The notes beneath the pieces are model-generated. The model saw nothing but the letters and a program-made list of their open reading frames with translations. It did no database searches and was not told where the DNA came from. A DNA stretch of 61,542 nt, the filler included, from a bacterium (GTDB taxonomy: Bacteria; UBA9089; CG2-30-40-21; SBAY01): assembly GCA_040757115.1 (NCBI GenBank). It is 5 parts of 5 records of this genome, joined end to end, with 100 filler letters (N's around TTAATTAATTAA, not from the genome) between each part and the next. Parts side by side here need not be neighbours in the genome. Positions count along the whole stretch, not along the records: positions 25,118 to 37,508 come from JBFLYA010000118.1; 4 more parts are not named here. One strand, 5' to 3'. This document shows, in pieces, positions 3,279 to 55,829 of this stretch. The position numbers were made by a program, and so were the translations under genes. Each line of letters begins with the position of its first letter. Position 1 is the first letter of the stretch.

Positions 3279-3314
3279 CGATTAATTCCACAACCTAAAG
3301 GTCGATTAGTATAT

Positions 3315-3446: not shown

Positions 3447-3468
3447 TACTGAATTATTAAGGATTATC

Positions 3469-4353: not shown

Positions 4354-4407
4354 CCCATCGCTGCAGACGACCTCGCTTTGCTCGGCGGCTGAGCTCTATC
4401 GTTAGAC
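4348..4407 (+). repeat. Short attC site (60 bp)
   Basis: GCCTAAC...GTTAGAC; last site of array 1. Confidence 0.85.
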
Positions 4408-20544: not shown

Positions 20545-20631
20545 CTATAACTCAAATCTCAAAACGCAAAACTCAAAACTACAACTTAAAACTAAAAAAG
20601 CGTTGATAGTAGATAGTTGATAGTTGAAGGA

Positions 20632-20800
20632 CTATAAACTATACACTATAAACTATAAACCATAAACTATAAACTATAAACCATAAACTATAAACCATAA
20701 ACTATAAACTATAAACCATAAACTATAAACCATAAACTATAAACCATAAACTATAAACTATAAACCATAAACTATAAACTATAAACCATAAACTATAAAC
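20632..20800 (+). repeat. Heptamer tandem repeat AC(T/C)ATAA, about 24 copies
   Basis: Seen directly; preceded by complementary GATAGTT units. Confidence 0.95.
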
Positions 20801-20886
20801 GAGTTTTGCATTTTTAGTTTTAAATTTTAAGTTTTTTCCTGCCCTCTCTTATTTTTTGCCAAAGTGGGGTTAGGTATAGATTGGCT

Positions 20887-25017: not shown

Positions 25018-25117
25018 NNNNNNNNNNNNNNNNNNNNNNNNNNNNNNNNNNNNNNNNNNNNTTAATTAATTAANNNNNNNNNNNNNNNNNNNNNNNNNNN
25101 NNNNNNNNNNNNNNNNN
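25018..25117. other. Artificial contig linker
   Basis: N/TTAATTAATTAA/N. Confidence 0.98.
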
Positions 25118-25435
25118 TTAGACTAATAAAAATAATCACACAGAGACACAAAGTCACAAAGGAATTGAATAAAACAATAAACCTTTGTGTTCTTTGTGGC
25201 TTTGTGTGAGAAAATAAAAAGGAGATATTTTAGGGTCAAACCGTAAATGTGGAATGCACAATAATTCGGTGAGGCAGAGGAAAAGGAAAAGACAGCGAAT
25301 CAAAGCTTTTGTCTAACCCTGCGTTGCAGTTGACGGCGGGGGACTGTGCCGTGGTCAGAGTTTTGTGGTCTCTCAAAGTTTTATCTTGCTATCAAACTTT
25401 TGTGGTAATCCTCCCCGCAGCAGGTGAGCTCAATC
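25118..25435 (+). mobile_element. ORF-less cassette type B (hairpin, 80-bp leader, attC)
   Basis: Copies at 37041-37358 and 37359-37508. Confidence 0.85.
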
Positions 25436-25442
25436 GTTAGGC
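25311..25442 (+). repeat. attC site, type 2/type 1 hybrid
   Basis: GTCTAAC...GTTAGGC; left arm type 2, right arm type 1. Confidence 0.9.
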
Positions 25443-25465
25443 AAAAACAACTTTGGAGAGTATCT

Positions 25466-25783
25466 ATGATTTCTGAAAAAATAATTAAAAAAGCAATAGA
25501 ACGATTGATAGAAGTAGCAAATCCACAAAAGATATATCTATTTGGCTCTTATGCACGTGGTGATGCTCGAGAGCAATCTGATTTAGACCTTTTGGTCGTT
25601 GAACAAACGATAAAAAGCCAACGAAAGGAAATGGTTTATCTCCATGATGCAATTCGTTCAATGTGTATTCCTGTAGACATTATACCTGTAAGCGAAGCTA
25701 CTTTTAACGAATGGTCCAATGTACCAGGTACTGTCATTCATAAAGCCAAAACTGAAGGACGATTATGCTATGAAAAATCGTAA
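25466..25783 (+). CDS. Cassette: MNT nucleotidyltransferase antitoxin
   Basis: LFGSYARGD...SDLDLLV. Confidence 0.9.
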   Translation: MISEKIIKKAIERLIEVANPQKIYLFGSYARGDAREQSDLDLLVVEQTIKSQRKEMVYLHDAIRSMCIPVDIIPVSEATFNEWSNVPGTVIHKAKTEGRLCYEKS

Positions 25784-26165
25784 ACTTGCAGAACGGTTTC
25801 TGAGTAAAGCAAATCAAGATATGATTGTTATCGAGAAGTGGCGGCAAGACAAGGAGATTCCTGATGAGATTTTAGGCTTTCATGCTCAACAAGCGGCTGA
25901 GAAAATGCTTAAAGCGGTTTTGGCCTATCAAGGGATCGAATTTCCATTTACTCATCGATTGGCTGACTTGATAGACTTAAGCAAAAAGCAAGGTATCGTT
26001 TTACCAGAGAGATTGGAAGAGGTACGTTTTTTGACTCCTTTTGCTGTTAAGTTTCGTTATGACCTTTATTATGAAGAGGATAAAGAACCTATTGATTTTA
26101 AAGAAATATTCACCTTGCTTATCGAATTACGCAACTGGGTGAATACAATAATCTCTCAGGAGTGA
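25770..26165 (+). CDS. Cassette: HEPN domain toxin
   Basis: GFHAQQAAEKMLKA...THRL...RY; overlaps the MNT gene. Confidence 0.9.
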   Translation: MKNRKLAERFLSKANQDMIVIEKWRQDKEIPDEILGFHAQQAAEKMLKAVLAYQGIEFPFTHRLADLIDLSKKQGIVLPERLEEVRFLTPFAVKFRYDLYYEEDKEPIDFKEIFTLLIELRNWVNTIISQE

Positions 26166-26171
26166 TAATTT

Positions 26172-26227
26172 GCCTAACGAATCGTTGCAGCGGACGGCGG
26201 GGGATTGTGCCGTGATTAAAAGTTTTG
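26172..26227 (+). repeat. Truncated native attC (left half)
   Basis: TTTGCCTAAC matches the cassette's own 5' core GTTAGGCAAA, then breaks off. Confidence 0.8.
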
Positions 26228-26323
26228 AAACCGGGAAAGATATTAGGGTCAAACCGTGAATGTGGAATGCACAATAATTCGGTGAGGCAGAGGAAAAGGA
26301 AAAGACAGCGAATCAGAGTTTTT

Positions 26324-26455
26324 GTCTAACCCTGCGTTGCAGTTGACGGCGGGGGACTGTGCCGTGGTCAGAGTTTTGTGGTCTCTCAAAGTTTTATCTT
26401 GCTATCAAACTTTTGTGGTAATTCTCCCCGCCGCACCTGAACTTTATCGTTAGAC
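26324..26455 (+). repeat. attC site, type 2
   Basis: GTCTAAC...GTTAGAC. Confidence 0.9.
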
Positions 26456-26540
26456 ACTTGAGTTTTAAGATATTTCGGCTGTGCGATGTTATAAGGTTTG
26501 CTGATTAAAGGCAAATATAATTTAAAAGGAGTATGTATAA

Positions 26541-26753
26541 ATGAAGATAAAAGAAAAAGCCATGAAGGAATTGAAGGCAATGACACCGTTAGAAATTATC
26601 ACGATTTATGAGATAATGCTTTCGTTAAAAATCAAAACAAAGAAGAAACTTCCAAATCATTCAAAAGCCTATATCAAAGTGAGAGAGGCATTAAGTAAAT
26701 GCGACGGGTCGTTAAGCAATGACATACTTATGGAAAGAGAGGATAAAATTTGA
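26541..26753 (+). CDS. Cassette: putative antitoxin
   Basis: Small gene overlapping a PIN gene; ends LSNDILMEREDKI. Confidence 0.7.
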   Translation: MKIKEKAMKELKAMTPLEIITIYEIMLSLKIKTKKKLPNHSKAYIKVREALSKCDGSLSNDILMEREDKI

Positions 26754-27202
26754 AACTGTTCATTGATAGTTCCGCACTTGTTAAATTCTTTCATAAAGAA
26801 GAAGGCTCTCAGAGAGTTACGGAATTAATAGTTTCGGAAGACAATGAGATATGGATTTCCGAAATTGCCGGAGTTGAATTTCTCTCTGCGGTAACAAGAA
26901 GATTTAGGAATAAAGAAATAGATGAGGAGAATTTGAATAATGCCATTTCGGGTTTTGAAGAACAGTTAAGCACTTTCAATGTAGAGCCTGTAGGACATGC
27001 GATAATTAAAGAAACTGAATCTTTAATCAAACAACATGGAAAGTCACAAGGACTTAGAACACTTGACGCACTACACCTCGGAACATTTAATCTGATTGCT
27101 GAAAAAGACTGGGTATTTGTAGCAGCAGACGAAACTCTCTGTAAAGCAGTTCACCAAATGGGATACAGTTTTATAAATCCTCTTGAAGATCAGAGACAAT
27201 AA
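26750..27202 (+). CDS. Cassette: PIN-domain (VapC) toxin
   Basis: FIDSSALVK...E...LRTLDALHL...AAD. Confidence 0.9.
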   Translation: MKLFIDSSALVKFFHKEEGSQRVTELIVSEDNEIWISEIAGVEFLSAVTRRFRNKEIDEENLNNAISGFEEQLSTFNVEPVGHAIIKETESLIKQHGKSQGLRTLDALHLGTFNLIAEKDWVFVAADETLCKAVHQMGYSFINPLEDQRQ

Positions 27203-27310
27203 CAAGTTGAATACCAAGAGGAGGATAGATTAGGTTCAAACCTCGAAGATAGAATTTACAAAAAACCGAAGATTAAGAAAAGAAGAAAAAGACGGCGGAG
27301 CAAGTCTTTT

Positions 27311-27442
27311 ACCTAACAAATCGTTGCAGCGGACGGCGGGGGACTGTGCCGTGGTCAGAGTTTTGTGGTCTCTCAAAGTTTTATCTTGCTATCAAACTTT
27401 TGTGGTAATCCTCCCCGCCGCACCTGAACTTTATCGTTAGCA
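27311..27442 (+). repeat. attC site, type 2
   Basis: ACCTAAC...GTTAGCA. Confidence 0.9.
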
Positions 27443-27461
27443 TCAAACATTTTCAGAAGAG

Positions 27462-27665
27462 GTGAATTATACCATGCGAAGAAAAGATTATATTCAACTT
27501 CAGAGAAAATACGGTGGTAATTTTATTGCCACTATGAATGACCAGATAGTTGCTGTAGCAAAAACTCAGAAAGAGTTAACCTATAAAATAACCGAAAAAA
27601 AATTAAAGAGAAAAGATGTCATCTATGAATATATCGAACCGAAAGGAGCTATCTGTGTCTATTGA
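27462..27665 (+). CDS. Cassette: small DUF5678-like protein
   Basis: KYGGNFIA...IVA pattern, coupled to a protease gene. Confidence 0.6.
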   Translation: MNYTMRRKDYIQLQRKYGGNFIATMNDQIVAVAKTQKELTYKITEKKLKRKDVIYEYIEPKGAICVY

Positions 27666-28065
27666 ATTCCCGCTTAGAGAAAAAAGAACACATTTAGGAG
27701 TTATCCCTGACCCTAAAATAGATATCCTGATATTGGAAAAATCTGGCTATGCTCCTTACAGATTTCTCCTCGATACAGGTGCTGACTGTACAATGATGCC
27801 TTCCTCATCAGCGGAAGACTTAGGCATTGATTTAGAGCAGTGTCCTATTGATCGTTCTTATGGTATTGAAGGAGATGGTGTAAAAGTTTATCTTAGTCCG
27901 ATAACAGTTAAAATCGGAAGTCATAACCTAACTATTAAATGCCTCTTCTCAGAGAAGGAAAATACTCCTTATTTACTGGGACGGATGGATATTTTCTCTC
28001 ATTTTAATATCACCTTTGATAATGAACAGAAGAAACTAATTCTTACACATATTCCTACTGATTAG
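27655..28065 (+). CDS. Cassette: retropepsin-like aspartyl protease
   Basis: FLLDTGA and LLGR motifs; GTG start after AAGGAG. Confidence 0.85.
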   Translation: MSIEFPLREKRTHLGVIPDPKIDILILEKSGYAPYRFLLDTGADCTMMPSSSAEDLGIDLEQCPIDRSYGIEGDGVKVYLSPITVKIGSHNLTIKCLFSEKENTPYLLGRMDIFSHFNITFDNEQKKLILTHIPTD

Positions 28066-28190
28066 CCCTACTGTGGAGAAAGATATTATTAGTTAGGGTC
28101 AATTATTAGTTAGGGTCAAACCGTGAATGTGGAATGCACAATAATTCGGTGAGGCAGAGGAAAAGGAAAAGACAGCGAATCAAAGCTTTT

Positions 28191-28322
28191 GTCTAACCCT
28201 GCGTTGCAGTTGACGGCGGGGGACTGTGCCGTGGTCAGAGTTTTGTGGTCTCTCAAAGTTTTATCTTGCTATCAAACTTTTGTGGTAATTCTCCCCGCCG
28301 CACCTGAACTTTATCGTTAGCA
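28191..28322 (+). repeat. attC site, type 2
   Basis: GTCTAAC...GTTAGCA. Confidence 0.9.
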
Positions 28323-28359
28323 TATAATACAAGCATTGAATAACACGACATAAGGAGGA

Positions 28360-31284
28360 ATGATTTATATGCCTAAAATTAGAATTCATTATAACAATGA
28401 GTATGCCTATTCTCAGCCAGAATTATATGTTTGGGCAGATAAGATGAAACCCATAAAACAGAAGCCGGATGGAAATGATTCCTTTGGACCTTATTTTGAT
28501 TTTGATCTTATTGGTTTCCATGATAATCTCCATTTTAAGTTCAAAGATGGAGAAGTGTATGAACCAAATAGCGACAATCGTCTCCTAAAAATCGATAGCC
28601 CCAATAATATCTGGACATTTGCTGGAAGTAATGGGGTATTCTATGAAGACCAGATAAAATTAGATATAACCACCCTCAAAATTCACCTGAGAACAGCTAA
28701 TAAATATGTCAATAGTAAATTATATATTTGGTCCTTGGCTGGCAACAAAATAGGTGATATTGAAAAATCAGGCAATGATGATTTTGGTCCATATTGGGAA
28801 GTCCCATTAAAGACGGATAAAGAACGGACTTCTATATGTTTTAAATTTCACAAAGATGATTTATGGGAACCTGACAGGGCTAATAAGTTATGGTTATGTG
28901 TTTATGGGAATGAGGTTTGGACAAAAAGTGAAACTAATCTGGTCATTAGTAAAAAACCTGAGATGCTCAACATCAAGGTAAAATTTAAAACTAAAAAACT
29001 ATCCCCAATAATGCATATCTGGCAGCAGGATGATTTTATTAAAGATATTCCATCCAGATCTAAAGATAAATTTGGGTTTATCTATACGGTGTCGCTATAT
29101 ACCGGTTTACCGTATAATTTTATGTTTTATGAGAATGGGAACTGGGAGATGGAAAGTTGTATAAAGACATTTACCCCAGAAAAAGATAACAGCTATATCT
29201 GGGCATTTGATGGCGTCACCCAGTTATTTAACCAAAAGCCATTAAAAAACAAGATACTTACGGTCTCTATGCAAAGAGAACCTAAGAGTCTATTGGATGA
29301 TTCGACGAGGATGCATATCTGGGCTGGGAATGCGATTAAAGAGGATATTGCTCCTCGTTATGTATCGACTAACGGTCGGCTTGTTTATAAATTGAAGGTC
29401 TATTCAGGACTACCCTACAGAATGATGTTTCATAAAGGAGATAATTGGGAGAGAAGCAGTGAAAGAAGTGTTGTCTTAGAGAAAAGTAAAGCGGTCTGGG
29501 TTATTGAAAATAATCTTTCTATACTTAACTCACCGCCTCCTTATAACTTGTTCCAAAATCCTGACTTCTGGATAAAAAGACCCGGGGTATATAAAGAGAA
29601 CGGGTTCTACCGATTTGTCCTACATGCCCCTCATGCTGGTCGGGTAAGAGTCATTGGTGAGTTTACAGACTGGGAGAAAAATGCCTATGATCTGAGACTT
29701 ACCGAGGATAAACGCTACTGGTGGGTATCAATTCCGGCTAATAAGATAAGGCATGGGCAGAAATACAAATATTTACTCAATGATGATTGGTATTCTCAGG
29801 ATCCAGCGGCAAGTTGGGTTGAGAATTCGTCATATTCAGCCTGTTCCCAGATTCTTGTTTCTGATAATTATAAATGGAATGATAGTCAGTGGCGAACACC
29901 TGGTTTTGAATATCTAATCATCTATCAATGTCATATCCGAAGATTTACTAATCGTAATGGGAATCAGCGGACATATTCTCAATTGATTGAAGAAATAAAG
30001 GAAAATGCCAAAAACAATTACCTGAAAGACCTGGGGATTACCGTCATTGAGTTATTACCTATCCAGGAGTTTCCTATGGATAAATCATGGGGATACAATC
30101 CATCTTTCTTCTATGCCCCGGAGTCGGCCTATGGTAAGCCTGATGAATTAAAAGAATTTGTTGATATTTGCCATCAGAATGGGATAGCTGTTATCCTGGA
30201 TGTCGTCTTTAATCATGTTGGAGGGGATTGTGCCTTGTGGAATTTAGCTCAGGAGACCTATTTTGATGGTGATACTAAATGGGGGGCAATGATTAATTAC
30301 GATAATGAAATAACCCAGCAATTTTTTACCCAAAATGTCTTATATTTAAGAGAAGAATACCACATCGATGGATTCAGATTTGATTGCACGGATGCAATTA
30401 TCCATTCTACGGCTAAGAATGATTTGATAAAGAAACCAGGCAGTGATGGTGGCGGGAATTTCTTGCATAAGATAAGAAAAGCTGTCAAAGGTGTGGATAA
30501 TAATATCATCTTGATTGCGGAACAATTACCTAATGATTTCAGCTTGACTAATTACGGTGGTCCAATGGATACCCAATGGTTTGACGACTTCCATGATATC
30601 CTGAAAAAGTCACTTTGTGGTGTTCATAATATGGATGACCTGGCACAGGCGTTTACCCTGGGTTATAAGCGTTGTAATGAGTGGAATGATGTGGTCAATT
30701 ATTCTGAGAGTCATGATGAAGTAGGGAATACAGATGATAGAATCGCTCGCGTTGGGGCAGATTTTAAAGGATACAATATGTGCAAAATAGCGGCTACGGC
30801 TACATTAATGGCCAGAGGGATCCCCATGTTGTTTATGGGACAGGAAAGTGGTGAATCTAAGCAGTTTAAGGTAGATAACGATGATGTGCTTGACCTGGAT
30901 GATTATGAAAAGGACATAAACAAAACTAAGATTCGAGAATGGACAAAGGCAATGATTGCCTTGCGTAAAAATAATCCTTTTATCCAAAATGGGGCAGATT
31001 TGACCATAAAATATACCTATAACCAGGATAAAATTATTGCCTTTACCAGAGGTGGAGATAAATATTTTGTCGTTATGAACTTTGGAGGTTGGCATGGCTA
31101 TCGTTATCTGGGTGAGATGAATTTGCCTTATGGCGACTATAAAGAGATTTATAACTCTACCTGGCCATATTATGCCTTTGACTTTGAAGATGAACATACC
31201 AATGGTGGTTATAATGCTTGCTTAAATGCTAATCATAGTTTAAATATCCCTGATTATGGTGTAGTTATACTTGAAAAACGGTAA
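28360..31284 (+). CDS. GH13 alpha-amylase/branching-enzyme-like protein with repeated N-terminal carbohydrate-binding-like modules
   Basis: SWGYNP, DVVFNH, DGFRFD, IAE, ESHDE conserved regions; about four YVW/HIW...FKF..W repeats. Confidence 0.85.
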   Translation: MIYMPKIRIHYNNEYAYSQPELYVWADKMKPIKQKPDGNDSFGPYFDFDLIGFHDNLHFKFKDGEVYEPNSDNRLLKIDSPNNIWTFAGSNGVFYEDQIKLDITTLKIHLRTANKYVNSKLYIWSLAGNKIGDIEKSGNDDFGPYWEVPLKTDKERTSICFKFHKDDLWEPDRANKLWLCVYGNEVWTKSETNLVISKKPEMLNIKVKFKTKKLSPIMHIWQQDDFIKDIPSRSKDKFGFIYTVSLYTGLPYNFMFYENGNWEMESCIKTFTPEKDNSYIWAFDGVTQLFNQKPLKNKILTVSMQREPKSLLDDSTRMHIWAGNAIKEDIAPRYVSTNGRLVYKLKVYSGLPYRMMFHKGDNWERSSERSVVLEKSKAVWVIENNLSILNSPPPYNLFQNPDFWIKRPGVYKENGFYRFVLHAPHAGRVRVIGEFTDWEKNAYDLRLTEDKRYWWVSIPANKIRHGQKYKYLLNDDWYSQDPAASWVENSSYSACSQILVSDNYKWNDSQWRTPGFEYLIIYQCHIRRFTNRNGNQRTYSQLIEEIKENAKNNYLKDLGITVIELLPIQEFPMDKSWGYNPSFFYAPESAYGKPDELKEFVDICHQNGIAVILDVVFNHVGGDCALWNLAQETYFDGDTKWGAMINYDNEITQQFFTQNVLYLREEYHIDGFRFDCTDAIIHSTAKNDLIKKPGSDGGGNFLHKIRKAVKGVDNNIILIAEQLPNDFSLTNYGGPMDTQWFDDFHDILKKSLCGVHNMDDLAQAFTLGYKRCNEWNDVVNYSESHDEVGNTDDRIARVGADFKGYNMCKIAATATLMARGIPMLFMGQESGESKQFKVDNDDVLDLDDYEKDINKTKIREWTKAMIALRKNNPFIQNGADLTIKYTYNQDKIIAFTRGGDKYFVVMNFGGWHGYRYLGEMNLPYGDYKEIYNSTWPYYAFDFEDEHTNGGYNACLNANHSLNIPDYGVVILEKR

Positions 31285-31455
31285 CCATTCAGGATGTAAT
31301 GAAGGGAAAAGGGGAAATAGGGGGGAATAGGAAATTTAGCCACCTGGGCGATTAGACTAATTCATCGCAGAGACGCAAAGGAAAAATAAATGGAAAATAG
31401 GAAATGAAAAATGGGAAATTTTAGTAATTCGCAAGACTCATTACCTTTTTCATCG
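31281..31455. mobile_element. MITE fragments replacing the intI 3' end
   Basis: GTAACCATTCAGG end at 31281; 31342-31450 is the reverse complement of part of the 4662-4834 MITE. Confidence 0.8.
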
Positions 31456-32445
31456 CAGTGGTGTCGTCGTATCTTACCACTGCGAGGATCGCTGGATATT
31501 CGGCTGGATGGAAAAACATATTGCCATCCCCATTCCTTAGAGGCATTAGGATATTTCCGTTCTAAGGCAAAAGGCAGATAGACCTCTCCCAACCCCTTTT
31601 GAAGATCCTCTTCGTGCAATATCTTAACTCGGCGTAAATGTTCTAACAATGCTGGTTTTAATGTTTCAGGCAGCATCGTTGAACGGTCTTTCCTCCCTTT
31701 TCCCTCACGCACAATGACTTGATTTCGTTCAAAGTCAATATCTTTAACCCGCAAACGAATACATTCCATCAACCGTAGTCCACAGCCGTAAATAAGTTTT
31801 GCCATCAATCCATATAGCGGTTATTAACTGGAAGTTTACATAGGATAATACCCATAAATAAGGTATGAGAATAATCGTTCCGTTAGGAACATAATATTGG
31901 TAGAAATAGATAGACAAATCAATCAGTTCCGTAGGAACGATATATTGGTAGAAAATTTATGGAAAGCCATTTACCGATATATTGTCCCTCTGGGACATTA
32001 TTTGTATGATATTTATTTCTACCGATATGTTGTCCCTCTGGGACATTATTTGTATTTCTAAGTAAAGTTTTGAATAATAACTGCCATAAGTCCCTGACAT
32101 AGCTGACAGAACACGACTAACTTCTGCTTTTGTCAAAACTGTGGGTAACTTTTCAGGCTTCTTAGCTCGCTGGATATGCCCAAAATCTCCCAGTTCAATC
32201 TGAAGAATATGTTTATAAAGAAAGACGATAGCATTGAGCGCCTGATTTTGGGTGCTTGCCGAAACCTTCTGATTGGTTGCCAGGTAAGAAAGATACTGAG
32301 AGATTTCCTTTTCTCCCATATATTTTGGATGCTTTTTGTTATGGAAGAGAACAAATCGTTTTATCCATTCAATATAACTTTGCTCAGTACGAATAGAATA
32401 GTGCTTTTTACGCATCACTTCACTGGTCTGCTCAAGAAGATTCAC
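31456..32445 (-). pseudogene. intI: Integron integrase (copy 2), split by a MITE and 3'-truncated
   Basis: [10 protein letters not shown]...GKGRKDR plus the IntI-specific [24 protein letters not shown]...DPRSG.IRRHH. Catalytic HxxR and Tyr region absent. Confidence 0.95.
31815..32086. mobile_element. TA-targeting MITE (IS630/Tc1-like) inside intI
   Basis: Ends TAGCGGTTATTA/TAATAACTGCCA with TA duplication; removal restores SGTYGLMAKL. Confidence 0.9.
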
Positions 32446-32630
32446 CTCATTAGACCTCCTTTCAGCATTTTTCGGTTTCAATATTACATGCATTTTAACT
32501 ATAAAACACTATTTATCAGCTAATTGCAAGAAAAAAATTTATAATGCAGTAAAATAAAAACCGCTAATAGGCAGTATAATATCAGGATGTTATTTTTCAG
32601 TATTTTCTAATTTTGATATTAAAATTTTTC

Positions 32631-32659
32631 TTGACAGAATATTCTATTTATGCTACTCT
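32631..32659 (+). promoter_or_regulatory. Cassette promoter Pc (copy 2)
   Basis: TTGACA-17 bp-TACTCT with a TGn extension. Confidence 0.75.
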
Positions 32660-32673
32660 ATAAATAGCCTAAC

Positions 32674-32726
32674 TTATAATGCAGTAATATAAAACTGCCA
32701 ATAGGCAGTATAATCTAAGGTTAGAC
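32674..32726 (+). other. attI site (copy 2), crossover at G32720
   Basis: Homologous to 864-916. Confidence 0.75.
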
Positions 32727-33077
32727 ATGCCAGACAGACAAGAAGGAGAAGGAGGAGAGTTATTCCTGTTGGAAGTTTCGGTGAGAATATTTGCTCCTTA
32801 GCGGACTATACCAGGCCTGCGAGATTGATGCTTTTCGGAAAGAGTTGCTTATCCCTCAGAAGCAACAGGGGGAGGCTAAGAGGGTCTACTGAAAAGTGAT
32901 AGTTAGGTAAGATAGAGGAAGCAAGAAGAAAGAGACGGCAAAGTGCAGCTTTTTCTAACCATTCGCTGCACCTGACTGCGGGGGGCTGTGCCGTAATTAG
33001 AGTTTTGTGGTATCTTAAGCTTTTATCTTGTTTACAAAGTTTGGTGGTAATCCGCCCCGCAGCAGGTGAGCTCTATC
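32720..33077 (+). mobile_element. Non-coding cassette type C
   Basis: Second copy at 36680-37040; no conserved start-to-stop ORF. Confidence 0.75.
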
Positions 33078-33084
33078 GTTAGCT
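32953..33084 (+). repeat. attC site, type 1
   Basis: TTCTAAC...GTTAGCT. Confidence 0.9.
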
Positions 33085-33124
33085 TTCGAACCGAAACTCT
33101 AAACAATCGCGAAAGAAGCGAAGA

Positions 33125-33643
33125 ATGGAGGAACCAATGACTCAAAATGAAGAAAGAAAAGGAGTGCTTTCTCAAATCATTGTCGCCGTCGTTGTCACTT
33201 TACTAGTTGGCGGTACTGCTCCATGGTGGTGGGACATAATCGCTCCGGAAAAATCTCAGGAAAAACCTGATGGCATTCCAACTTGGGATGGGCAGATTCA
33301 GGAAAAACCTGATGGCATTCCAACTCGGGATGGGCAGATTCAGGTTCGGTGTACTGCCAGTCCCCATTCAATTCCCGCTGGCGGACAGGTCGGAATCACG
33401 GTTCTGGCCTTCACAGAGCAGAGTTCTCCGGTCAGTAGCGCAAATGTTCGTATTGAAGCAGGCGGAGGATGGTTCTCCAGAAGCGGAACCACTATCGAGG
33501 TCGGACAGACGGACGCTGGTGGTGTATTCATGACCCAGTGGAGGTCTCCGAACCCAGCCGCGGGGGCATATGGAATGAACGTAACAGTGACCAAAGATGG
33601 TTTTACCGAGGGCAGGGATGAGTGCAATATCCCCATACAATAG
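33125..33643 (+). CDS. Cassette: membrane-anchored protein with an Ig-like domain
   Basis: TM helix, 14-aa duplication, beta-rich GQTDAGGVF...Y...VTVTKDGF. Confidence 0.65.
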   Translation: MEEPMTQNEERKGVLSQIIVAVVVTLLVGGTAPWWWDIIAPEKSQEKPDGIPTWDGQIQEKPDGIPTRDGQIQVRCTASPHSIPAGGQVGITVLAFTEQSSPVSSANVRIEAGGGWFSRSGTTIEVGQTDAGGVFMTQWRSPNPAAGAYGMNVTVTKDGFTEGRDECNIPIQ

Positions 33644-33663
33644 AAGAAGCTACATACGGGATC

Positions 33664-33795
33664 ATCTAACCATTCGCTGCACCTGACTGCGGGGGGCTGT
33701 GCCGTAATTAGAGTTTTGTGGTATCTCAAGCTTTTATCTTGTTTACAAAGTTTGGTGGTAATCCGCCCCGCAGCAGGTGAGCTTGATCGTTAGCA
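33664..33795 (+). repeat. attC site, type 1
   Basis: ATCTAAC...GTTAGCA. Confidence 0.9.
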
Positions 33796-33830
33796 CCAGA
33801 TTGAACTAACCACCAGAAGGAGGAAGAGAC

Positions 33831-34112
33831 ATGGGAAAATGTCCGAAATGTGAAAATCTTATTACAACCGTCAACATTGAAGACGTTACTGTAAATCATC
33901 TTTTTCAGCCTGGTTGGAAAGGAATTTCATATCTTTGCCCATTTTGTAATTCTGTTCTGAGTGTACAGATTGATCCGATTGCGGTACGCACTGACATTTC
34001 AGACCATGTAGATCAGGCAGTTGCTCCTGTTTCGCAGGAGGTTGTTACCTTGCGTAGTCAAGTCACTCGGTTGGAGCAACTTTTAGCGCAGTTGTTGCAG
34101 CCACGGCGCTAG
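33831..34112 (+). CDS. Cassette: Zn-ribbon plus coiled-coil protein
   Basis: CPKC...CPFC with a strong RBS. Confidence 0.7.
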   Translation: MGKCPKCENLITTVNIEDVTVNHLFQPGWKGISYLCPFCNSVLSVQIDPIAVRTDISDHVDQAVAPVSQEVVTLRSQVTRLEQLLAQLLQPRR

Positions 34113-34219
34113 GGTTGCGTGGGTTCAGATGTCTGTCTGGTTCAGGAGGAAGTAAGTTAGGGTCGGAACCTGATTATTAGGAAATAGAGGAAATAGGGGG
34201 ACATTTCCCCTATTTATTG

Positions 34220-34252
34220 ACCTAACAAATTGTTGCAGCGGACGGCGGGGGC
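34220..34252 (+). repeat. Truncated attC (left part)
   Basis: ACCTAACAAATTGTTGCAGCGGACGGCGGGGG, followed by the leader module. Confidence 0.75.
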
Positions 34253-34345
34253 TGCGGGGATATTTTAGGGGCAAACCGTGAATGTGGAATGCACAATAAT
34301 TCGGTGAGGCAGAGGAAAAGGAAAAGACAGCGAATCAAAGCTTTT

Positions 34346-34477
34346 GTCTAACCCTGCGTTGCAGTTGACGGCGGGGGACTGTGCCGTGGTCAGAGTTTTG
34401 TGGTCTCTCAAAGTTTTATCTTGCTATCAAACTTTTGTGGTAATTCTCCCCGCCGCACCTGAACTTTATCGTTAGCC
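34346..34477 (+). repeat. attC site, type 2
   Basis: GTCTAAC...GTTAGCC. Confidence 0.9.
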
Positions 34478-34514
34478 ACTCAACAAATAAAACTTGATAT
34501 AGGAGGGAGAAATT

Positions 34515-34904
34515 ATGGGACGAATTGTAGCACAAGTTGAAATATCGAATCCACAAGATGAGGGGAAGAATTTGACATGCAGTATATTTGTTGATACTGG
34601 TGCTGCTGGATTAATTCTTCCAATGGCATGGAAAGAACGCTTGGGGAAATTTGCAAGCAGTGAAGTTGTAGATCTTGTGTTAGCGAACAATGAAGTAGTT
34701 AAAGGTGAAGCGTGTGGACCTGCAGGAATTCAAATAGAAGGATTCCGAAAAGTCTTTAACGAAGTAACCTTTATGGAGATGGAAAAAGCAGAAAATGGTG
34801 AATACGAACCCCTTTTAGGATATATAATTCTGGAACAAACACAAGTAGCCGTTGATATGCTTGGACATCGTCTTGTACCTGTGAAATATATCGATTGCAG
34901 ATAA
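34515..34904 (+). CDS. Cassette: clan AA aspartyl protease
   Basis: FVDTGA and EPLLG..ILE motifs. Confidence 0.85.
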   Translation: MGRIVAQVEISNPQDEGKNLTCSIFVDTGAAGLILPMAWKERLGKFASSEVVDLVLANNEVVKGEACGPAGIQIEGFRKVFNEVTFMEMEKAENGEYEPLLGYIILEQTQVAVDMLGHRLVPVKYIDCR

Positions 34905-35006
34905 ATTAAACAATAAGATTTATCGTTAGGGTCAAACCGTGAATGTGGAATGCACAATAATTCGGTGAGGCAGAGGAAAAGGAAAAGACAGCGAATCAAA
35001 GCTTTT

Positions 35007-35138
35007 GTCTAACCCTGCGTTGCAGTTGACGGCGGGGGACTGTGCCGTGGTCAGAGTTTTGTGGTCTCTCAAAGTTTTATCTTGCTATCAAACTTTTGTG
35101 GTAATCCTCCCCGCCGCACCTGAACTTTATCGTTAGGC
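35007..35138 (+). repeat. attC site, type 2
   Basis: GTCTAAC...GTTAGGC. Confidence 0.9.
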
Positions 35139-35405: not shown

Positions 35406-35828
35406 ATGCCAATGAGTAAAGTTTTTCTTGATACCGCATATGCTATTGCACTATCTTCGCCCAACGATGAGCAACACAAAAAAGCCGTGCAGATTGCAGA
35501 ACAATTGGAAGCGGATGCAACTAAGTTGGTTACAACGCGAGCTGTCATATTGGAAATTGGAAATGCATTAGCTAAGTTACGGTATCGTAAAGCTGCAGTC
35601 GAATTATTGGACTCACTCGAACAAGACCCAAATGTTGAAATCATCCCAATTTCGGAAGAATTGTATAAGCGTGCATTCCAGTTTTATCGTGAGCGACCAG
35701 ATAAGGAATGGGGAATTACAGATTGTATATCTTTTGTTATTATGCAGGAGCAAAGGTTGACAGCGGCACTGACAACAGATGAACACTTCCAACAGGCTGG
35801 CTTTCAAGCACTCCTAATGGATAATTAG
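35406..35828 (+). CDS. Cassette: PIN-domain (VapC) toxin
   Basis: FLDTAY...E...TDCISF...TTDEHF.QAG. Confidence 0.9.
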   Translation: MPMSKVFLDTAYAIALSSPNDEQHKKAVQIAEQLEADATKLVTTRAVILEIGNALAKLRYRKAAVELLDSLEQDPNVEIIPISEELYKRAFQFYRERPDKEWGITDCISFVIMQEQRLTAALTTDEHFQQAGFQALLMDN

Positions 35829-35919
35829 GGTCAAACCTTGAATATTGAATTTACTTTTTGCATAACTTATTGATAACAAAAGAGATAAGAAAAGAAAAAG
35901 ATGGCAAAGCATAGTTTTT

Positions 35920-36051
35920 ACCTAACAAATCGTTGCAGTTGACGGCGGGGGACTGTGCCGTGGTCAGAGTTTTGTGGTCTCTCAAAGCTTTATCTTACTA
36001 TCAAACTTTTATGGTAATCCTCCCCGCCGCACCTGAACTTTATCGTTAGGT
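35920..36051 (+). repeat. attC site, type 2
   Basis: ACCTAAC...GTTAGGT. Confidence 0.9.
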
Positions 36052-36080: not shown

Positions 36081-36629
36081 ATGATAAGTGGGTTTAAGGT
36101 TTCGCTTCGAGCAGCAAAGGAATCTGATCGTCGGCAGGTGTATAAATGGTTAGCTTGCTCTGACTTGACGCCATCAATGATGGGTCCTCCAGACTTTCCC
36201 GACCATCCGGTTCCAACCTGGGAAGAGTTTTGTTCAGATTACAAAGCACATTACTTTGATGACTCTGCCATATATTCTGGCAGGTGCTTCATTATCACGG
36301 TTGCACATGAAGGCGTTGGTGTGGTAAGCTATAATCAGATTAACCAGAACAGAAGAGAAACCGAATTAGACATCTGGCTTCGCTCAGAATCTGATTGTGG
36401 AAAGGGATACGGCTCTGATGCTTTGAAAACGCTATGTGATTATCTACATACCACTTACGGCATTGAAAGCTTTATCCTCAGGCCGTCTGCAAGAAACCAA
36501 CGAGCTATTGCCGCATATCAACGAGCGGGTTTTAAATTATTGTCTCTTTCGTCTGGTAAACAAAGAGCCGAATATGGTCCAGGAGACTACGTTGATACAG
36601 TGGTACTTTGCAAGCATATGTCCACCTAA
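36081..36629 (+). CDS. Cassette: GNAT N-acetyltransferase
   Basis: GKGYGS and N.RAI..Y.RAGF motifs; stop lies inside the attC core. Confidence 0.85.
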   Translation: MISGFKVSLRAAKESDRRQVYKWLACSDLTPSMMGPPDFPDHPVPTWEEFCSDYKAHYFDDSAIYSGRCFIITVAHEGVGVVSYNQINQNRRETELDIWLRSESDCGKGYGSDALKTLCDYLHTTYGIESFILRPSARNQRAIAAYQRAGFKLLSLSSGKQRAEYGPGDYVDTVVLCKHMST

Positions 36630-36686
36630 CCAATCGCTGCACCTGACCACGGCTATCGCTCGGGCAGGTGAGCTCAATCGTTAGAC
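36624..36686 (+). repeat. Short attC site (63 bp)
   Basis: ACCTAAC...GTTAGAC. Confidence 0.85.
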
Positions 36687-37040
36687 AGGCCGGGGGCAGA
36701 CAAGAAGAAGAAGAAGGAGGAGTTATTCCTGTTGGAAGTTTCAGGGAGAATATTTGCTCCTTAGTGGCCTATACCAGGCCTGCGAGATTGATGCTTTTCG
36801 CAAAGAGTTGCTTATCCCTTAAAAGCAACAGGGGGGAGTCTAAGAGGGCTTACTGAAAAGTGATAGTTAGGTAAGATAGAGGAAGCAAAAAGAAAGAGAC
36901 GGCGAAGTGCAGCTTTTTCTAACCATTCGCTGCACCTGACTGCGGGGGGCTGTGCCGTTTTCAAAGTTTTGTGATTTATCAAGCTTTTATCTTGCTTACA
37001 AGGTTAGTGGTAATTCACCCCGCAGCAGGTGAGCTCAATC
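36680..37040 (+). mobile_element. Non-coding cassette type C, second copy
   Basis: Homologous to 32720-33077. Confidence 0.75.
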
Positions 37041-37047
37041 GTTAGGC
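36917..37047 (+). repeat. attC site, type 1
   Basis: TTCTAAC...GTTAGGC. Confidence 0.9.
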
Positions 37048-37508
37048 TAATAAAAATAATCACACAGAGACACAAAGTCACAAAGGAATTGAATAAAACA
37101 ATAAACCTTTGTGTTCTTTGTGGCTTTGTGTGAGAAAATAAAAAGGAGATATTTTAGGGTCAACCGTGAATGTGGAATGCACAATAATTCGGTGAGGCAG
37201 AGGAAAAGGAAAAGACAGCGAATCAGAGCTTTTGTCTAACCCTGCGTTGCAGTTGACGGCGGGGGACTGTGCCGTGGTCAGAGTTTTGTGGTCTCTCAAA
37301 GTTTTATCTTGCTATCAAACTTTTGTGGTAATTCTTCCCGCCGCACCTGAACTTTATCGTTAGACTAATAAAAATAATCATACAGAGACACAAAGTCACA
37401 AAGGAATTGAATAAAACAATAAACCTTTGTGTTCTTTGTGGCTTTGTGTGAGAAAATAAAAAGGAGATATTTTAGGGTCAAACCGTGAATGTGGAATGCA
37501 CAATAATT
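37041..37508 (+). mobile_element. Two tandem ORF-less type B cassettes (second cut by the contig end)
   Basis: Homologous to 25118-25435. Confidence 0.85.
37234..37365 (+). repeat. attC site, type 2
   Basis: GTCTAAC...GTTAGAC. Confidence 0.9.
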
Positions 37509-37608
37509 NNNNNNNNNNNNNNNNNNNNNNNNNNNNNNNNNNNNNNNNNNNNTTAATTAATTAANNNNNNNNNNNNNNNNNNNNNNNNNNNNNNNNNNNN
37601 NNNNNNNN
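37509..37608. other. Artificial contig linker
   Basis: N/TTAATTAATTAA/N. Confidence 0.98.
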
Positions 37609-41700: not shown

Positions 41701-42025
41701 CATTGTTTTGCCGCAAACAAGTCAATCTGCGGCAATGTTGGTCGCAGAAAAAATACGCAGTGAAATTGCCAAACACCAGATGGTATTTGAAGGTAAATCT
41801 TTCAATTTAACTGCCAGTCTGGGGGTATCGACCTGCTATAAAGAAGACGATAAGTCATTTAATGCCAAGATGTTAGTTTCAAGGGCAGACCAGGCACTTT
41901 ATTGGGCAAAGGAAGCTGGTAGAAACCGCGTCTGCCTGTATCAAACCGGTATGGAACAAAAACCCATCAAACCCCACTATCAATGGAAAGATGTCATCCT
42001 CGCCCTGATGAGACCTTTATCTTAA
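38708..42025 (+). CDS. Diguanylate cyclase: PocR-GAF-long coiled coil-GAF-GGDEF
   Basis: PocR cysteines (FC...C...CDAGL), GAF, RKTD I-site, RFGGDEF. Confidence 0.9.
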   Translation: MIKNGELKKLFNKFVKSEEWEKIKSVILDKIGSTSCWLIDIEGHYNFKKQDDKNFCQMIKSTPGGANRCEKSFLFTLQQARRTKMPVCIMCDAGLLGFACPILVGKEVVGTIGGCQIANSDVGYSAYQEIARKFNLPADDFITILQKEDHLISMDVLEIEVELITLLAQSAIELVFKREQLLEREEEIKGISESYQLFGSNRESILNLGKENIYSLIVNMVARAMGAEICSLMLVDEDTKELIMKAAVGLEIPIVSKTKVKAGEGVVGYVINTGKSLLVEDIDNDPRFTRTFHSNRYYTKSLLTCPLRVKDEVVGVISVNNKYTHGPFNQKDLELLEQISHHINQALTNLSPYPSEEEKIKELKAAEVARLRSEAEQLELLCNVKREEIKELERQAEESGKARVQPPEELLTQIEEQKTVLEELNKKIASYEEELTRRPKLEEMNEIKIKLEADALKLKDYETEIGKLNATIAEITTRPQIEDIEMLRAQSIIAEEAKLASEELKAKLEEESMKSQLQVEEIERLKAELESMKESVSRAEEYKVKAEAENLKVLALTEQIQEFTTQVGEMEMLKSQVTELKEKVKVELPAGVEPKDFEAYSRSLKTKLEAEETKTKTLTAQINELKTQIQDQRLKRQIEELERLKKERSTLEQLRAQTALITELRVEAEKAKEKTRTEHTELEELKAQQAKLNLLYQVKQEIKETLRQEAEAKRAEDTKGQTEAQERLKELRAQAEELEKLRAQTRELNFLFRMTKELSQMMEKEKILELILNETYTYLDYHLGAYLIIKDEKLQGILRRNCQVNEKIIEDLKQKMLNQWLQWNPRRKKDAKRLISLEVIGEVVKSVSQQEDRLPAFISAPIKEGNKIIGILSVCSFTKDEFSPIEKRLLTIIGDQISVALERGRLFGEMKDSAERDELTKVYNFRYFEKFFDKEYELALRYNQPLSLIVLDFDHLKYFNDTYGHQAGNRLIKIIAQLIQRKVRKTDWVTRFGGDEFTIVLPQTSQSAAMLVAEKIRSEIAKHQMVFEGKSFNLTASLGVSTCYKEDDKSFNAKMLVSRADQALYWAKEAGRNRVCLYQTGMEQKPIKPHYQWKDVILALMRPLS

Positions 42026-42378
42026 TTTGTCCGTAACCGTTCAGGTAGTCCTTTACCGCAGAGACGCAGAGAAACCAGAGAGGAAAATATCTTTTTTTTC
42101 GCGTTTTTCGGTGTTTAAAGGTGGTGTCTGAAAATAACGCTAATAGTGAAATCTATGCAGATTTGGTGTCCAAAAGGGGATAAGGAGATAAAGGAAGATA
42201 TGGAGATTATTCATTGTCCTTTCCAAAATTTTAGAATGAATTTATCTCCTAATCTCCATAATCCCCATATCTCCTTTTCTTACACTATGTTAACCTTTAT
42301 GCTAGTGCTCCGTCGCTGATAATTTGATAGATTGTTTTTCTACCTGTTATTCCCGCACAAGCGGGAATCCAAATTTTA

Positions 42379-47267: not shown

Positions 47268-48563
47268 ATGATAGAACGATATACATTACCACAAATGGCA
47301 GGTATCTGGACATTGGAAAATAGATACCAAAAAATTCTTGATGTTGAGATTTGTGCCTGCGAGGCACAGGCAGAATTAGGATATATTCCAGAGGAAGCAG
47401 TTAGGGTCATAAAAGAGAAGGCAAAATTTGATGTCAAACGAGTCCAGGAGATAGAAAAAACAACCCAGCATGATGTTATTGCTTTGTTAACCAATGTCGC
47501 TGAGTATGTTGGAGAAGAATCACGATTTATTCATTTTGGGCTTACTTCTTATGATGTGGTTGATACTGGATTATCTCTGATGATAATAGAGGCTCTTGGT
47601 ATTATCGAAGATGACTTAATAAAATTAAGTGAAACATTATTCGCCGGGGCGATAAAATATAAAAAAACCATAATGATAGGTCGCACTCATGGAGCCCATG
47701 CGGAACCTATTACCTTTGGTTTAAAATTAGCCTTATGGTATAAAGAGACTCAACGCAATCTACTCAGAATTAGAGAGGCAAAGGAATGTATCAGGGTGGG
47801 TAAACTATCCGGTGCCGTGGGCACATACTCCCAGATTGACCCAAAGGTAGAAGAATATGTTTGTCATAAACTTGGATTAACACCAGCAGAAGTTTCAACT
47901 CAAGTTATTCAACGAGACCGACATGCCCAGGTTTTGACGACATTAGCCATCATTGCCTCATCATTAGATAAATTTGCTACAGAGATTAGAAATCTGGCAC
48001 GCACAGATATACGAGAGGTAGAGGAGGCTTTTGGAGAGGGACAAAAAGGTTCTTCCGCGATGCCGCATAAACGCAATCCCATTACTTGCGAGCGAATTTC
48101 TGGGTTAGCCCGAATTGTCCGAGCAAACGCCCTCGCCTCATTAGAAAATATCCCGCTGTGGCATGAACGCGATATCACTCATTCCTCAGTTGAACGAATA
48201 ATCCTGCCTGATTCCTTTACCTTAGTCAACTATATGCTGGTTAAATTCAGGGATGTGGTTAAAAATTTAGTCATTTATCCTGAAAATATGCGGAAAAATA
48301 TTGACAAAACGCATGGCTTAATTCACTCTCAACGGGTTTTATTAGCATTGGCATACAAAGGACTCTCAAGAGAAAACGCATATAAATTAGTCCAGCGAAA
48401 TGCGATGAAGTCTTTGGATGAAGGAATTGAATTTAAAGATTTGCTTAAAAAAGACCGCGAAATATTAAAGGTTTTGAAGGCTAAAGAAATAGAGGCTTGC
48501 TTTGATTTAGGCTATTTTATTCGACATATTGATTATATCTTTGAGAGATTAGAAATATCGTAA
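47268..48563 (+). CDS. purB: Adenylosuccinate lyase
   Basis: GRTHG and GSSAMPHKRNP. Confidence 0.97.
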   Translation: MIERYTLPQMAGIWTLENRYQKILDVEICACEAQAELGYIPEEAVRVIKEKAKFDVKRVQEIEKTTQHDVIALLTNVAEYVGEESRFIHFGLTSYDVVDTGLSLMIIEALGIIEDDLIKLSETLFAGAIKYKKTIMIGRTHGAHAEPITFGLKLALWYKETQRNLLRIREAKECIRVGKLSGAVGTYSQIDPKVEEYVCHKLGLTPAEVSTQVIQRDRHAQVLTTLAIIASSLDKFATEIRNLARTDIREVEEAFGEGQKGSSAMPHKRNPITCERISGLARIVRANALASLENIPLWHERDITHSSVERIILPDSFTLVNYMLVKFRDVVKNLVIYPENMRKNIDKTHGLIHSQRVLLALAYKGLSRENAYKLVQRNAMKSLDEGIEFKDLLKKDREILKVLKAKEIEACFDLGYFIRHIDYIFERLEIS

Positions 48564-48700
48564 CCGTTCAGGTAGTCCTTTACCGCAGAGACGCAGAGGA
48601 ACAGAGAAGACATAGAAATAAAGTAACTATTCAGCCATTGATTAACACGGATTAGCACGGATAAAAAAATAAAATCAGTATTTCATCTGTGTCCCTCTAA

Positions 48701-49871: not shown

Positions 49872-49971
49872 NNNNNNNNNNNNNNNNNNNNNNNNNNNNN
49901 NNNNNNNNNNNNNNNTTAATTAATTAANNNNNNNNNNNNNNNNNNNNNNNNNNNNNNNNNNNNNNNNNNNN
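49872..49971. other. Artificial contig linker
   Basis: N/TTAATTAATTAA/N. Confidence 0.98.
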
Positions 49972-55689: not shown

Positions 55690-55829
55690 AAAAGAAAGTA
55701 GATGATATTCTAAATTCAATATTCAGGTTTGCCCCCAATACTTCACTCGGTTGGTCCTTTTGAGGACAAAAACAACTTTTTCGTTATCCTGTGAGATAGA
55801 TTAGTGGTAGAACGGAATCTGAGCTCGGT

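Follow-up and report, generated by a model that had tools for sequence, protein, structure and literature searches.

Where integron cassettes obtain their attC recombination sites, and how these sites come to be uniform within one chromosomal integron, are open questions, and the locus described here bears on both. The window, 61.5 kb long, strings together five contigs, each about 12 kb, with N spacers between them; it comes from a groundwater bacterium of a candidate phylum. On its third contig (25118-37508), many cassettes end in the same non-coding 3' tail of about 225 nucleotides (nt), which consists of a conserved leader followed by a 132-nt attC; we refer to this tail as the module. An earlier note on the window had described the module as grafted onto unrelated cassettes, and had offered acquisition or replacement of attC as what it might reveal. 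Judged from its sequence, the module was added secondarily to unrelated, pre-existing cassettes, and attC replacement occurs: the pairing of cassette cores, remnants of older sites and an orthologous cassette all speak for it. First acquisition was not supported, because the recipients had been cassettes before: their 5' cores are varied and their own, and in several the remains of a native attC are preserved.

The window was compared with 24 genomes of the candidate phylum. All genomes are fragmented metagenome bins in which repeats are under-assembled, and attCs in the other genomes were detected by a crude, purpose-made test. The nearest genome, G001, has 28% of sampled words in common with the window; it contributed 20 whole contigs and 12 further loci, on which attCs and leaders were mapped. 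One groundwater metagenome run contained 86% of the words of the queried stretch; the sequencing runs that matched included two DNA runs, from a single groundwater study, and no RNA run.

Contig 3 carries six complete, near-identical modules and a seventh that the contig end truncates, besides two diverged copies and two short forms. The first 39 nt of the leader were found with 0-3 mismatches at 25231, 26244, 28111, 34266, 34927 and 37473, where shuffled sequences were expected to give 0; the copy at 37155 has a 1-nt deletion, and the one at 37473 enters the N spacer at 37509. Diverged leaders at 27228-27317 and 35823-35926 scored 66.7 and 63.7 bits against a leader model, and the stop codon of the PIN gene at 35823 is the TAG that opens the leader. 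Exact search and the leader model recovered every copy named in the earlier note, including both diverged ones. The observations of that note stood; what it had overlooked were a second array on contig 1 with seven attCs, none preceded by a leader, and short leaders at 32899-32958 and 36863-36922. Complete attCs in the window number 19: six follow a near-identical leader, two a diverged leader and two a short one, and nine have no leader.

In G001, the 225-nt query gave 44 matches, most of them 94-99% identical, and the leader model gave 85 matches among the 150 candidates scored, which were the only ones considered. The dominant, young allele in the window organism and G001 is 93-100% identical between copies, and its R'' box, with which the attC opens, always reads GTCTAAC. 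One copy of this young module, at 92% identity and with the same 132-nt attC, lies on contig C27 of G018 (L032/L044), a genome of another family of the phylum, and looks like a cassette passed between lineages.

Contigs of the independent run X1 cover 26427-27341 and 27414-28139 without any difference. The junctions are therefore not assembly artefacts. The 17-nt duplication of the left boundary at 28085-28119, which had been reported before, is real and stands unchanged in the second of these contigs.

A cassette keeps its own first six bases through excision and insertion, and the R'' of its native attC pairs with those bases. The leaderless cassettes at 1379, 2136, 3441 and 36046 showed complementarity between the 5' core and their own R'' over 11, 9, 8 and 10 nt, respectively. 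The six gene cassettes of contig 3 that end in a full or diverged leader showed runs of 5-6 nt, and the core figures given in the earlier note (8-11 nt without the leader, 5-6 nt with it) were thus reproduced. A larger census covered 58 cassettes bounded by two detected attCs on window contigs 1 and 3 and on 32 G001 contigs or loci; these came down to 51 once one exact duplicate and six bodies longer than 2.5 kb, likely to conceal non-cassette DNA or sites that escaped detection, were left out. Perfect 7/7 pairing of R' and R'' was seen in 15 of 26 leaderless cassettes, in 2 of 21 with a full leader and in 2 of 4 with a short leader, and shuffling R'' among cassettes gave a fraction of 0.17. 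The mismatch of module-bearing cassettes thus holds beyond the window; the Fisher p value of 0.00075 makes the case look stronger than it is, since cassettes are kin, but the direction is clear. An identical R'', GTCTAAC, was present in 13 of the 21 full-leader cassettes regardless of their 5' core.

Remnants of older sites lie directly ahead of the module. The truncated attCs already noticed cover attC model positions 2-55 (the one at 26172) and 2-38 (the one at 34220), and their folds (z scores of -0.4 and -1.2, compared with -3.8 for a full attC) are not attC-like. The R'' of the 26172 stump, GCCTAAC, pairs 7/7 with the cassette 5' end, GTTAGGC. Upstream of the full-length leader, 37 distinct contexts were distinguished: five contain the 5' stump of an older attC, and one, L015, contains a complete attC with the leader beginning 8 nt later, the only 'empty' module cassette seen. 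At 26172, at 34220 and in three G001 cases the arrangement is that of fused cassettes: the first attC is partly or wholly lost, the second is intact, and the two are contiguous.

Comparison with orthologues, as the earlier note had advised, was carried out for the MNT-HEPN (nucleotidyltransferase and HEPN) cassette that ends in the 26172 stump, and there the orthologues carry a different, native, leaderless attC. Its closest relatives, at metagenome loci L128-L130, encode a HEPN protein 74% identical to that of the window. They share with the window cassette a start of G followed by TTAGGCAAAAACAA and, at equal distance from the stop codon, the sequence TTTGCCTAAC. In L128-L130, TTTGCCTAAC opens an intact leaderless attC of about 60 nt, with 5' core TTAGGC and R'' GCCTAAC as in the window. 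Because the orthologues have an intact leaderless attC at this point, the 26172 stump is what is left of the native site, and the module that follows it was added.

Other cassettes were followed into the comparison genomes. DNA searches of G001 with cassettes 25448-26170 and 27451-28084 gave no match. The protein of 27616-28062 has an orthologue in G004 (87% identical) whose contig ends about 170 nt past the gene, with another repeat and no attC seen there. For the 129-amino-acid (aa), aspartyl-protease-like protein of cassette 34515-34904, homologues 49-58% identical were found in 12 of the 24 genomes (loci L218-L227). At least five of 10 loci adjoin ordinary chromosomal genes with no attC visible; the neighbours include a ribosomal protein L27 frame and an acetolactate synthase small-subunit frame. 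These homologues were considered as a sign of recent capture and set aside, since 49-58% identity says little. Two joints in contigs of the related-strain X2 were also left out of the evidence, as their content of unique sequence was not shown: one runs from 26203 to an attC centre, possibly an intact native attC on the MNT-HEPN orthologue, and in the other a short attC without a leader is joined to the hairpin body at 25219.

The module is carried most often by the hairpin cassette, as we call a gene-less cassette of about 320 nt whose body is a long hairpin. This cassette stands first behind three attI copies, and in 11 of its 14 distinct contexts it comes after a proper R' box or an attI. 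Cassettes have therefore moved recently in this system, despite the dead integrase copy in the window.

To survey mosaic tails, 76 long attCs, each with 100 nt upstream, were aligned to the master copy at 26236-26463. About 19 were master-like over their full length. In seven, the likeness to the master begins at the 5' arm and continues to the 3' end, R'' and spacer are their own, and the master leader is absent; those at 27311, 35920 and, on contig 1, 3315 are among them. In five the master leader and 5' half are followed by a different 3' arm; four of these, for example 25311, join a type-A to a type-B arm and pair poorly. The remaining pattern, seen in four, is a master-like first block, an arm resembling that of a repetitive extragenic palindrome (REP), with a different remainder. 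Break points at many places in the repeat family point to homologous recombination or gene conversion between array members.

On balance we lean towards replacement of attC on existing cassettes, through recombination or gene conversion among tails together with cassette fusion, rather than first acquisition. The young allele, carried by the abundant and recently mobile hairpin cassette, would overwrite the tails of many pre-existing cassettes. One route would be ordinary homologous recombination or gene conversion between similar array tails, that is, concerted evolution: since a leader is already present on many cassettes in the phylum, homology between tails would begin at the left end of the leader, so the converted tract would stop there and leave a sharp left end. 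The cassette 5' core, outside the converted tract, would remain unchanged, and core mismatch, a uniform R'' and partly converted mosaics would follow. The other route would be cassette fusion, in which the native attC would be partly or wholly lost ahead of a module-bearing cassette without an open reading frame (ORF), leaving a stump. The repeat family and its spread, the core mismatch, the stumps, the orthologue, the mosaics and the link to dispersed palindromes described below are observations; from them we infer recombination as the route, and its direction.

Several points weigh against this reading. The conversion step comes from reading an alignment rather than from a formal recombination test or a tree, and orthologues with a native attC were compared for a single module-bearing cassette. 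In 17 of the 37 contexts, an ORF of at least 60 aa stops 3-42 nt ahead of the leader and no stump is present; such junctions fit conversion of an older leader-bearing tail and, equally, direct joining of a gene to the left end of the module. At least seven independent small tandem duplications lie exactly at that left end and nowhere else in the unit, which suggests an end-specific process that recombination would not predict. The stumps are broken at three points (R'' +6, +38 and +55) and all join the same module end: random deletion would not give one join end unless the partner cassette starts there. Conservation of the leader across orders, beside unrelated attC classes, goes beyond recombination alone and suggests a function.

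The leader itself, about 90 nt long, falls into three blocks in an alignment of 11 diverse copies from eight genomes, with a mean column identity of 66%. Block 1 (about 35 nt) begins GGGTCAAACC in the window and is one arm of a REP-like palindrome; on our reading of the alignment, only a decayed remnant of the second arm is left in the leader. Ahead of block 1 lies a looser G/A/T-rich run, which in young copies is AAGGAGATATT and a few T or A. Block 2 is a polypurine tract of 25-35 nt, more conserved in composition than in sequence, and block 3 is a conserved box whose end lies 10-16 nt ahead of R''; in the window it reads GACAGCGAA. The short leader is the long leader minus its palindromic part.

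BLAST with the leader alone gave 72-79% identical matches in other families and orders of the phylum, directly ahead of R'' boxes. A sequence-only model, R1, had matches in 17 of the 24 genomes, nine of which had given nothing to the model. At 28 loci in 15 genomes besides G001, 32 leader matches reach the 3' part, and 20 of these are followed by a hairpin closing on R''/R' in the crude test. The attCs behind the leader in other genomes sort into four classes by length and sequence (about 132, 62, 57 and 50-54 nt), which are mutually unalignable outside the core boxes; because the leader is conserved across all four, it is better conserved than the attC it precedes. The leader is old and far predates the present genome, and it goes with attCs throughout the candidate phylum. 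Nine integrase relatives in other phyla (Desulfobacterales, Brocadiia, Arcobacter and others), a small sample, showed no leader within 3 kb. The short attC classes of 50-57 nt in sister genomes (L045-L072) have a G+C-rich stem and then TTATTTT just before R', an arrangement like that of an intrinsic terminator on the sense strand.

Outside integrons, the first 23-25 nt or so of the leader recur as both arms of near-perfect palindromes, about 56-60 nt long, dispersed in sister genomes. Arm matches numbered 43 in G003, 42 in G002 and 22 in G005, and a reversed control pattern gave 0; the copies inspected lie in ordinary intergenic DNA, outside arrays. Another repeat, containing CATTCCGAACAGTATTG, occurs in inverted pairs at sister-genome loci L041, L120, L208 and L226 and often adjoins the GGGTCAAACC palindromes; it may be the outer part of that palindrome family.

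Searches for a role of the leader in RNA or protein were negative. RNAalifold found 0 pairs in the 11 diverse leaders, and the single-sequence fold (z of -0.55) was no better than shuffles. The consensus showed no pairing between leader and attC palindrome; the leader lies outside R'' and is not part of the attC proper. An Rfam search with E up to 1 gave no match besides chance microRNA matches on the hairpin cassette. A promoter scan found nothing on the + strand of the leader and one weak minus-strand site, in the hairpin context only. ORFs of 43 to 48 aa over attC and leader were rejected on inspection, as members of the alignment differ by 1 and 2 nt in the polypurine block, and within the REP arm a frame of nine codons is interrupted in several of them. 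Binding of Hfq to the A-R-N rich tract was dismissed because Hfq was found in none of the 24 genomes, while control genomes were positive.

Group II introns (RF02005, RF00029) occur in two sister genomes, at about 4325-5915 in L126 (G004 contig C26) and at 2634-4366 (-) and about 1740-1800 (-) in L125 (G008 contig C351). The introns of L126 and L125 carry reverse-transcriptase ORFs and lie in cassette orientation inside arrays. The G004 intron starts 12 nt after R'', and a third intron, a 5' fragment, again starts 12 nt after R''. The 3' exon of the G008 intron is the last 8 nt of the leader plus a complete attC.

Some of the difficulties raised above would be met if this lineage made or re-made its cassettes by attaching leader and attC, as a unit, to genes, with the 5' end of the module joined to the variable 3' end of a gene, an explanation we find unlikely. 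The left end of the module is fixed while donor ends vary, the three break points inside native attCs included, and the stop-codon junctions, the duplications confined to the left end and the homologues of 34515-34904 beside chromosomal genes all agree with it. One route would be a reverse transcriptase that copies module RNA to its 5' end and then jumps to an mRNA 3' end, and the sense introns with reverse transcriptases at or near R'' boxes in the arrays of G004 and G008 are of interest here. However, the varied 5' cores of the recipients, and for one of them the native-attC orthologues, mean that they were cassettes already, and mosaic tails need no RNA step, as recombination suffices. An Rfam scan of the window and 13 G001 integron contigs found no group II intron or other family at gathering score, and two reverse-transcriptase loci of G001 have neither leader nor intron RNA. 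The more specific proposal of a dedicated 'tailing' unit joined to the 3' ends of gene copies, possibly via an RNA copy and a template-jumping reverse transcriptase, strikes us as rather improbable. If it were true, the junctions would be footprints of cassette making or re-making, and the origin of cassette attCs would be testable with a known template sequence. We also hold it unlikely that the leader is a functional extension kept next to attC by selection, with its spread as a by-product. It could be a binding site for an accessory protein, an unwinding- or triplex-prone polypurine tract that aids attC folding, or an element of the mRNA 3' untranslated region. Such a role would fit the conservation of the leader across families and orders beside mutually unalignable attCs, the polypurine tract with composition conserved above exact sequence, the fixed distance from the conserved box to R'' and, by our own reading, the terminator-like hairpin and T-run of the short attC classes. 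It is weakened by the lack of conserved RNA pairs, of a stable fold and of an Rfam match, by the absence of a + strand promoter-like site in the leader and of Hfq, and by the fact that about half of the attCs in the same arrays (9 of 19 complete ones in the window) have no leader. A leader that aids recombination or expression would be a new part of the integron tool kit; otherwise it is a tracer of tail turnover in arrays.

The two mechanisms put forward in the earlier note fared less well. REP-like transposition, in which a transposase such as RAYT inserts the leader or palindrome next to attC hairpins and thereby drags or marks attC, appears quite improbable. The match of the first 25 nt or so of the leader to the arms of dispersed, intergenic palindromes survives from this proposal; the short leader without the palindromic part and the tandem duplications at the arm agree with it, and Y1 transposase genes are present in 17 of the 24 genomes. 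However, no arm lies within about 1.5 kb of any of the eight best Y1_Tnp loci (0/8), about 60 nt of the module are absent from the palindromes, and only a single solitary arm lies outside the integron in the window. The unit copied here is the whole 225 nt including attC, not the palindrome. The second mechanism, in which the integrase IntI recombines a circular leader-attC cassette at a secondary site between G and TTAGGG, is in our view very improbable. TTAGGG does resemble the 3' six bases of the R' box, two contexts (window 34917 and L026) end like the 3' end of an attC, with TTTATCG immediately before TTAGGG, and L015 has its leader 8 nt behind a complete attC. Against this, the join has no conserved GTT, which such a crossover would need: the base before TTAGGG is T, A or G, with G in a minority only. 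The bases upstream of TTAGGG (AAGGAGATATT and variants) are common to unrelated contexts and belong to the unit, which runs 10-20 nt upstream of TTAGGG, and not to targets. Diverged members read TATTG followed directly by GGGTC, TTA is absent in many diverged copies, and the integrase gene of the window is broken. Crossover at TTAGGG was not supported, and overwriting by recombination among tails, with cassette fusion, remains the reading we prefer.

The array in which this would have taken place is, by every sequence criterion tested, an ordinary sedentary chromosomal integron. Contig 3 runs from cassettes at 25118-28325 through a pullulanase gene, a broken integrase gene on the minus strand and the attI region to a second run of cassettes, which starts at 32723, next to integrase and attI, and continues to the contig end. 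All 18 listed window attCs begin NNYTAAC and end GTTAKNN, with one more at 2912 (ACATAAC), and they agree with the attC definition of RYYYAAC (R'') and GTTRRRY (R') in inverse orientation. The bottom strand of the master attC (26318-26466) folds at -23.2 kcal/mol with bulges in the stem (z of -3.83), and the short attC at 36621-36689 folds with a z of -2.25. Contig 1 opens with the 5' end of the integrase gene and attI once more, at 93-96% identity; behind them lie seven cassettes, among which the hairpin cassette occurs three times in leaderless form. The coordinates of these features are collected in the table.

After residue 135, the integrase gene is interrupted by about 270 inserted nt that contain an internal duplication, and its 3' end is cut by a repeat at about 31448, ahead of the catalytic tyrosine region. 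G014, a sister genome, has an intact integrase with a 327-aa frame. Sequencing depth over 31328-32155 in runs X1 and X2 was 20- to 80-fold above that of the pullulanase gene, so that the pieces inserted in the integrase are high-copy repeats. A repeated element with ends containing CCGCAGAGACGCAGAG and CTGAACG(C/G)TTAC was found at 31340-31400, 42025-42098, 48552-48625 and 60169-60242 in the window and at L006 and L028 in G001. In the window its neighbour is the truncated integrase; in G001 it lies against a leader and a hairpin cassette that are both truncated. It has the look of a small insertion element whose targets also include cassette tails. The truncated leaders of L006 and L028 were considered as deletion end points and rejected: both abut the end of the other repeated element and are insertions.

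The hairpin cassette has two subfamilies, 81-89% alike, of which one ends in leader and type-A attC and the other directly in a type-B attC; their 5' cores pair with their own R''. Leaderless relatives lie at 910-1018, 1145-1252 and 3040-3140. Read on the minus strand, the hairpin has a T-rich run behind it and resembles a terminator that would act against antisense transcription. Another cassette without a gene, its body about 230 nt long, is present at 32723-33086, where it is first behind attI in contig 3, and at 36683-37047; its copies are 91-94% alike, and it also occurs on at least five G001 contigs. The tiny cassette at 3273-3446 has a 36-nt body that starts TTAGGG and a leaderless attC that is master-like from the 5' arm and has its own R''. 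Repeats unrelated to the integron occur on contigs 2 and 1, at 20589-20833 and 7225-7749: a long run of 7-nt units (ACTATAA, ACCATAA) and four tandem 105-nt units.

Table. Positions of integron features and other landmarks in the window
Feature	Position	Strand	Details
N spacers around ttaattaattaa	12516-12615, 25018-25117, 37509-37608, 49872-49971		neighbourhood across spacers meaningless
Contig-1 cassette array behind second attI copy	910-4407	+	attCs at 1019, 1253, 2010, 2912, 3141, 3315, 4348; none with leader
Body of ORF-less hairpin cassette	25118-25229; also 37050-37153, 37368-37471	+	fold z -6.85
Leader copy	25230-25317	+	leader start search; leader model
Recombinant attC, type-A 5' arm and type-B 3' arm	25311-25442	+	
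MNT-HEPN cassette body	25442-26171	+	5' core TTAGGC
Stump of MNT-HEPN native attC	26172-26226	+	attC model positions 2-55; R'' GCCTAAC
Reference (master) leader	26241-26330	+	
Master attC, 132 nt	26324-26455	+	R'' GTCTAAC; z -3.83
Diverged leader of VapB-like/PIN cassette	27228-27317	+	identical cassette in G001
Mosaic attC	27311-27442	+	own R'' and spacer (ACCTAAC...), master-like from 5' arm to 3' end
17-nt tandem duplication of module left end	28085-28119	+	behind DUF5678 and aspartyl-protease cassette
Leader and attC	28109-28322	+	leader 28109-28197; attC 28191-28322
Integron integrase pseudogene	31362-32493	-	SAM-like N-terminal domain; N-terminal 135 aa intact
attI region, two direct repeats	32494-32722	+	crossover point GGTTAGAC at 32721
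Short leader and type-B attC	32899-33084	+	leader 32899-32958 (model positions 36-91); attC 32953-33084; second copy 36863-37047
Leaderless type-B attC	33664-33795	+	
Leader-like start (TTAGGGTCGGAACC...), then older attC stump	34142-34257	+	stump 34220-34257; R'' ACCTAAC; attC model 2-38
Leader and attC	34265-34477	+	leader 34265-34352; attC 34346-34477
Leader and attC	34925-35138	+	leader 34925-35013; attC 35007-35138; left-end variant GATTTATCGTTAGGG common to G001 locus L026
Diverged leader and mosaic attC	35823-36051	+	leader 35823-35926; attC 35920-36051
Short leaderless attC of GNAT cassette	36624-36686	+	10-nt core complementarity
Leader (1-nt deletion) and attC	37154-37365	+	
Leader cut by contig end	37472-37508	+	
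Solitary REP-like arm outside integron	55705-55740	-	leader model positions 3-39

Group IIC-attC introns are the basis of an intron-based model of cassette formation, and those described lie antisense. The sister genomes G004 and G008 resemble that system in having group II introns and reverse transcriptases at attC R'' boxes (PMC3001079). They differ in that their introns are in sense, none was found in the window or the searched G001 contigs, and the module junctions are not at the intron insertion point. Like REP/RAYT (TnpA-REP) systems (PMC8266576), the sister genomes have short palindromes dispersed between genes in tens of copies per genome; unlike them, no transposase linkage was found, and in the integron one intact arm is welded to a polypurine tract and attC. 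The hairpin cassette and the cassette at 32723-33086 are gene-less, multicopy and conserved in relatives, as are paralogous non-coding cassettes of Vibrio (PMC1382264) and ORF-less promoter cassettes (PMC6557892). In contrast to the latter, the leader has no promoter-like site, and the conserved part also forms the tail of gene-bearing cassettes.

That cassettes fuse when part of the first attC is lost is known (PMC4670013), and 26172 and 34220 resemble such fusions: the first attC is truncated and non-functional, and the units move together with the second attC. Here, however, the second 'cassette' is a gene-less leader and attC, so that the result is a change of tail rather than a two-gene operon, and it recurs on many cassettes. 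The closest parallel in array structure is offered by the VCR repeats of Vibrio (PMC1382264), where sites are likewise more alike within a host than between hosts, many cassettes are non-coding and paralogous, and recombination between repeats is invoked. Gene conversion was proposed there for homogenising the attC sites (59-be). In the present arrays the homogenised unit reaches about 95 nt beyond attC into the leader, overwriting is directly visible as core mismatch, stumps and mosaics, and the leader is common to several attC classes and to the whole phylum. Copying extends past the recombination site, and sequence therefore reveals the overwriting of attC, which can be checked against orthologues. 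A full-text literature search, a limited check, returned no description of a leader-like element or of tail overwriting. Homogeneity of attC within a host, paralogous non-coding cassettes and fused cassettes are already known; what appears to be new is a conserved element of about 90 nt, of REP-like origin, fixed ahead of unrelated attC classes across a phylum, together with what we read as direct sequence evidence of a dominant tail overwriting native attCs.

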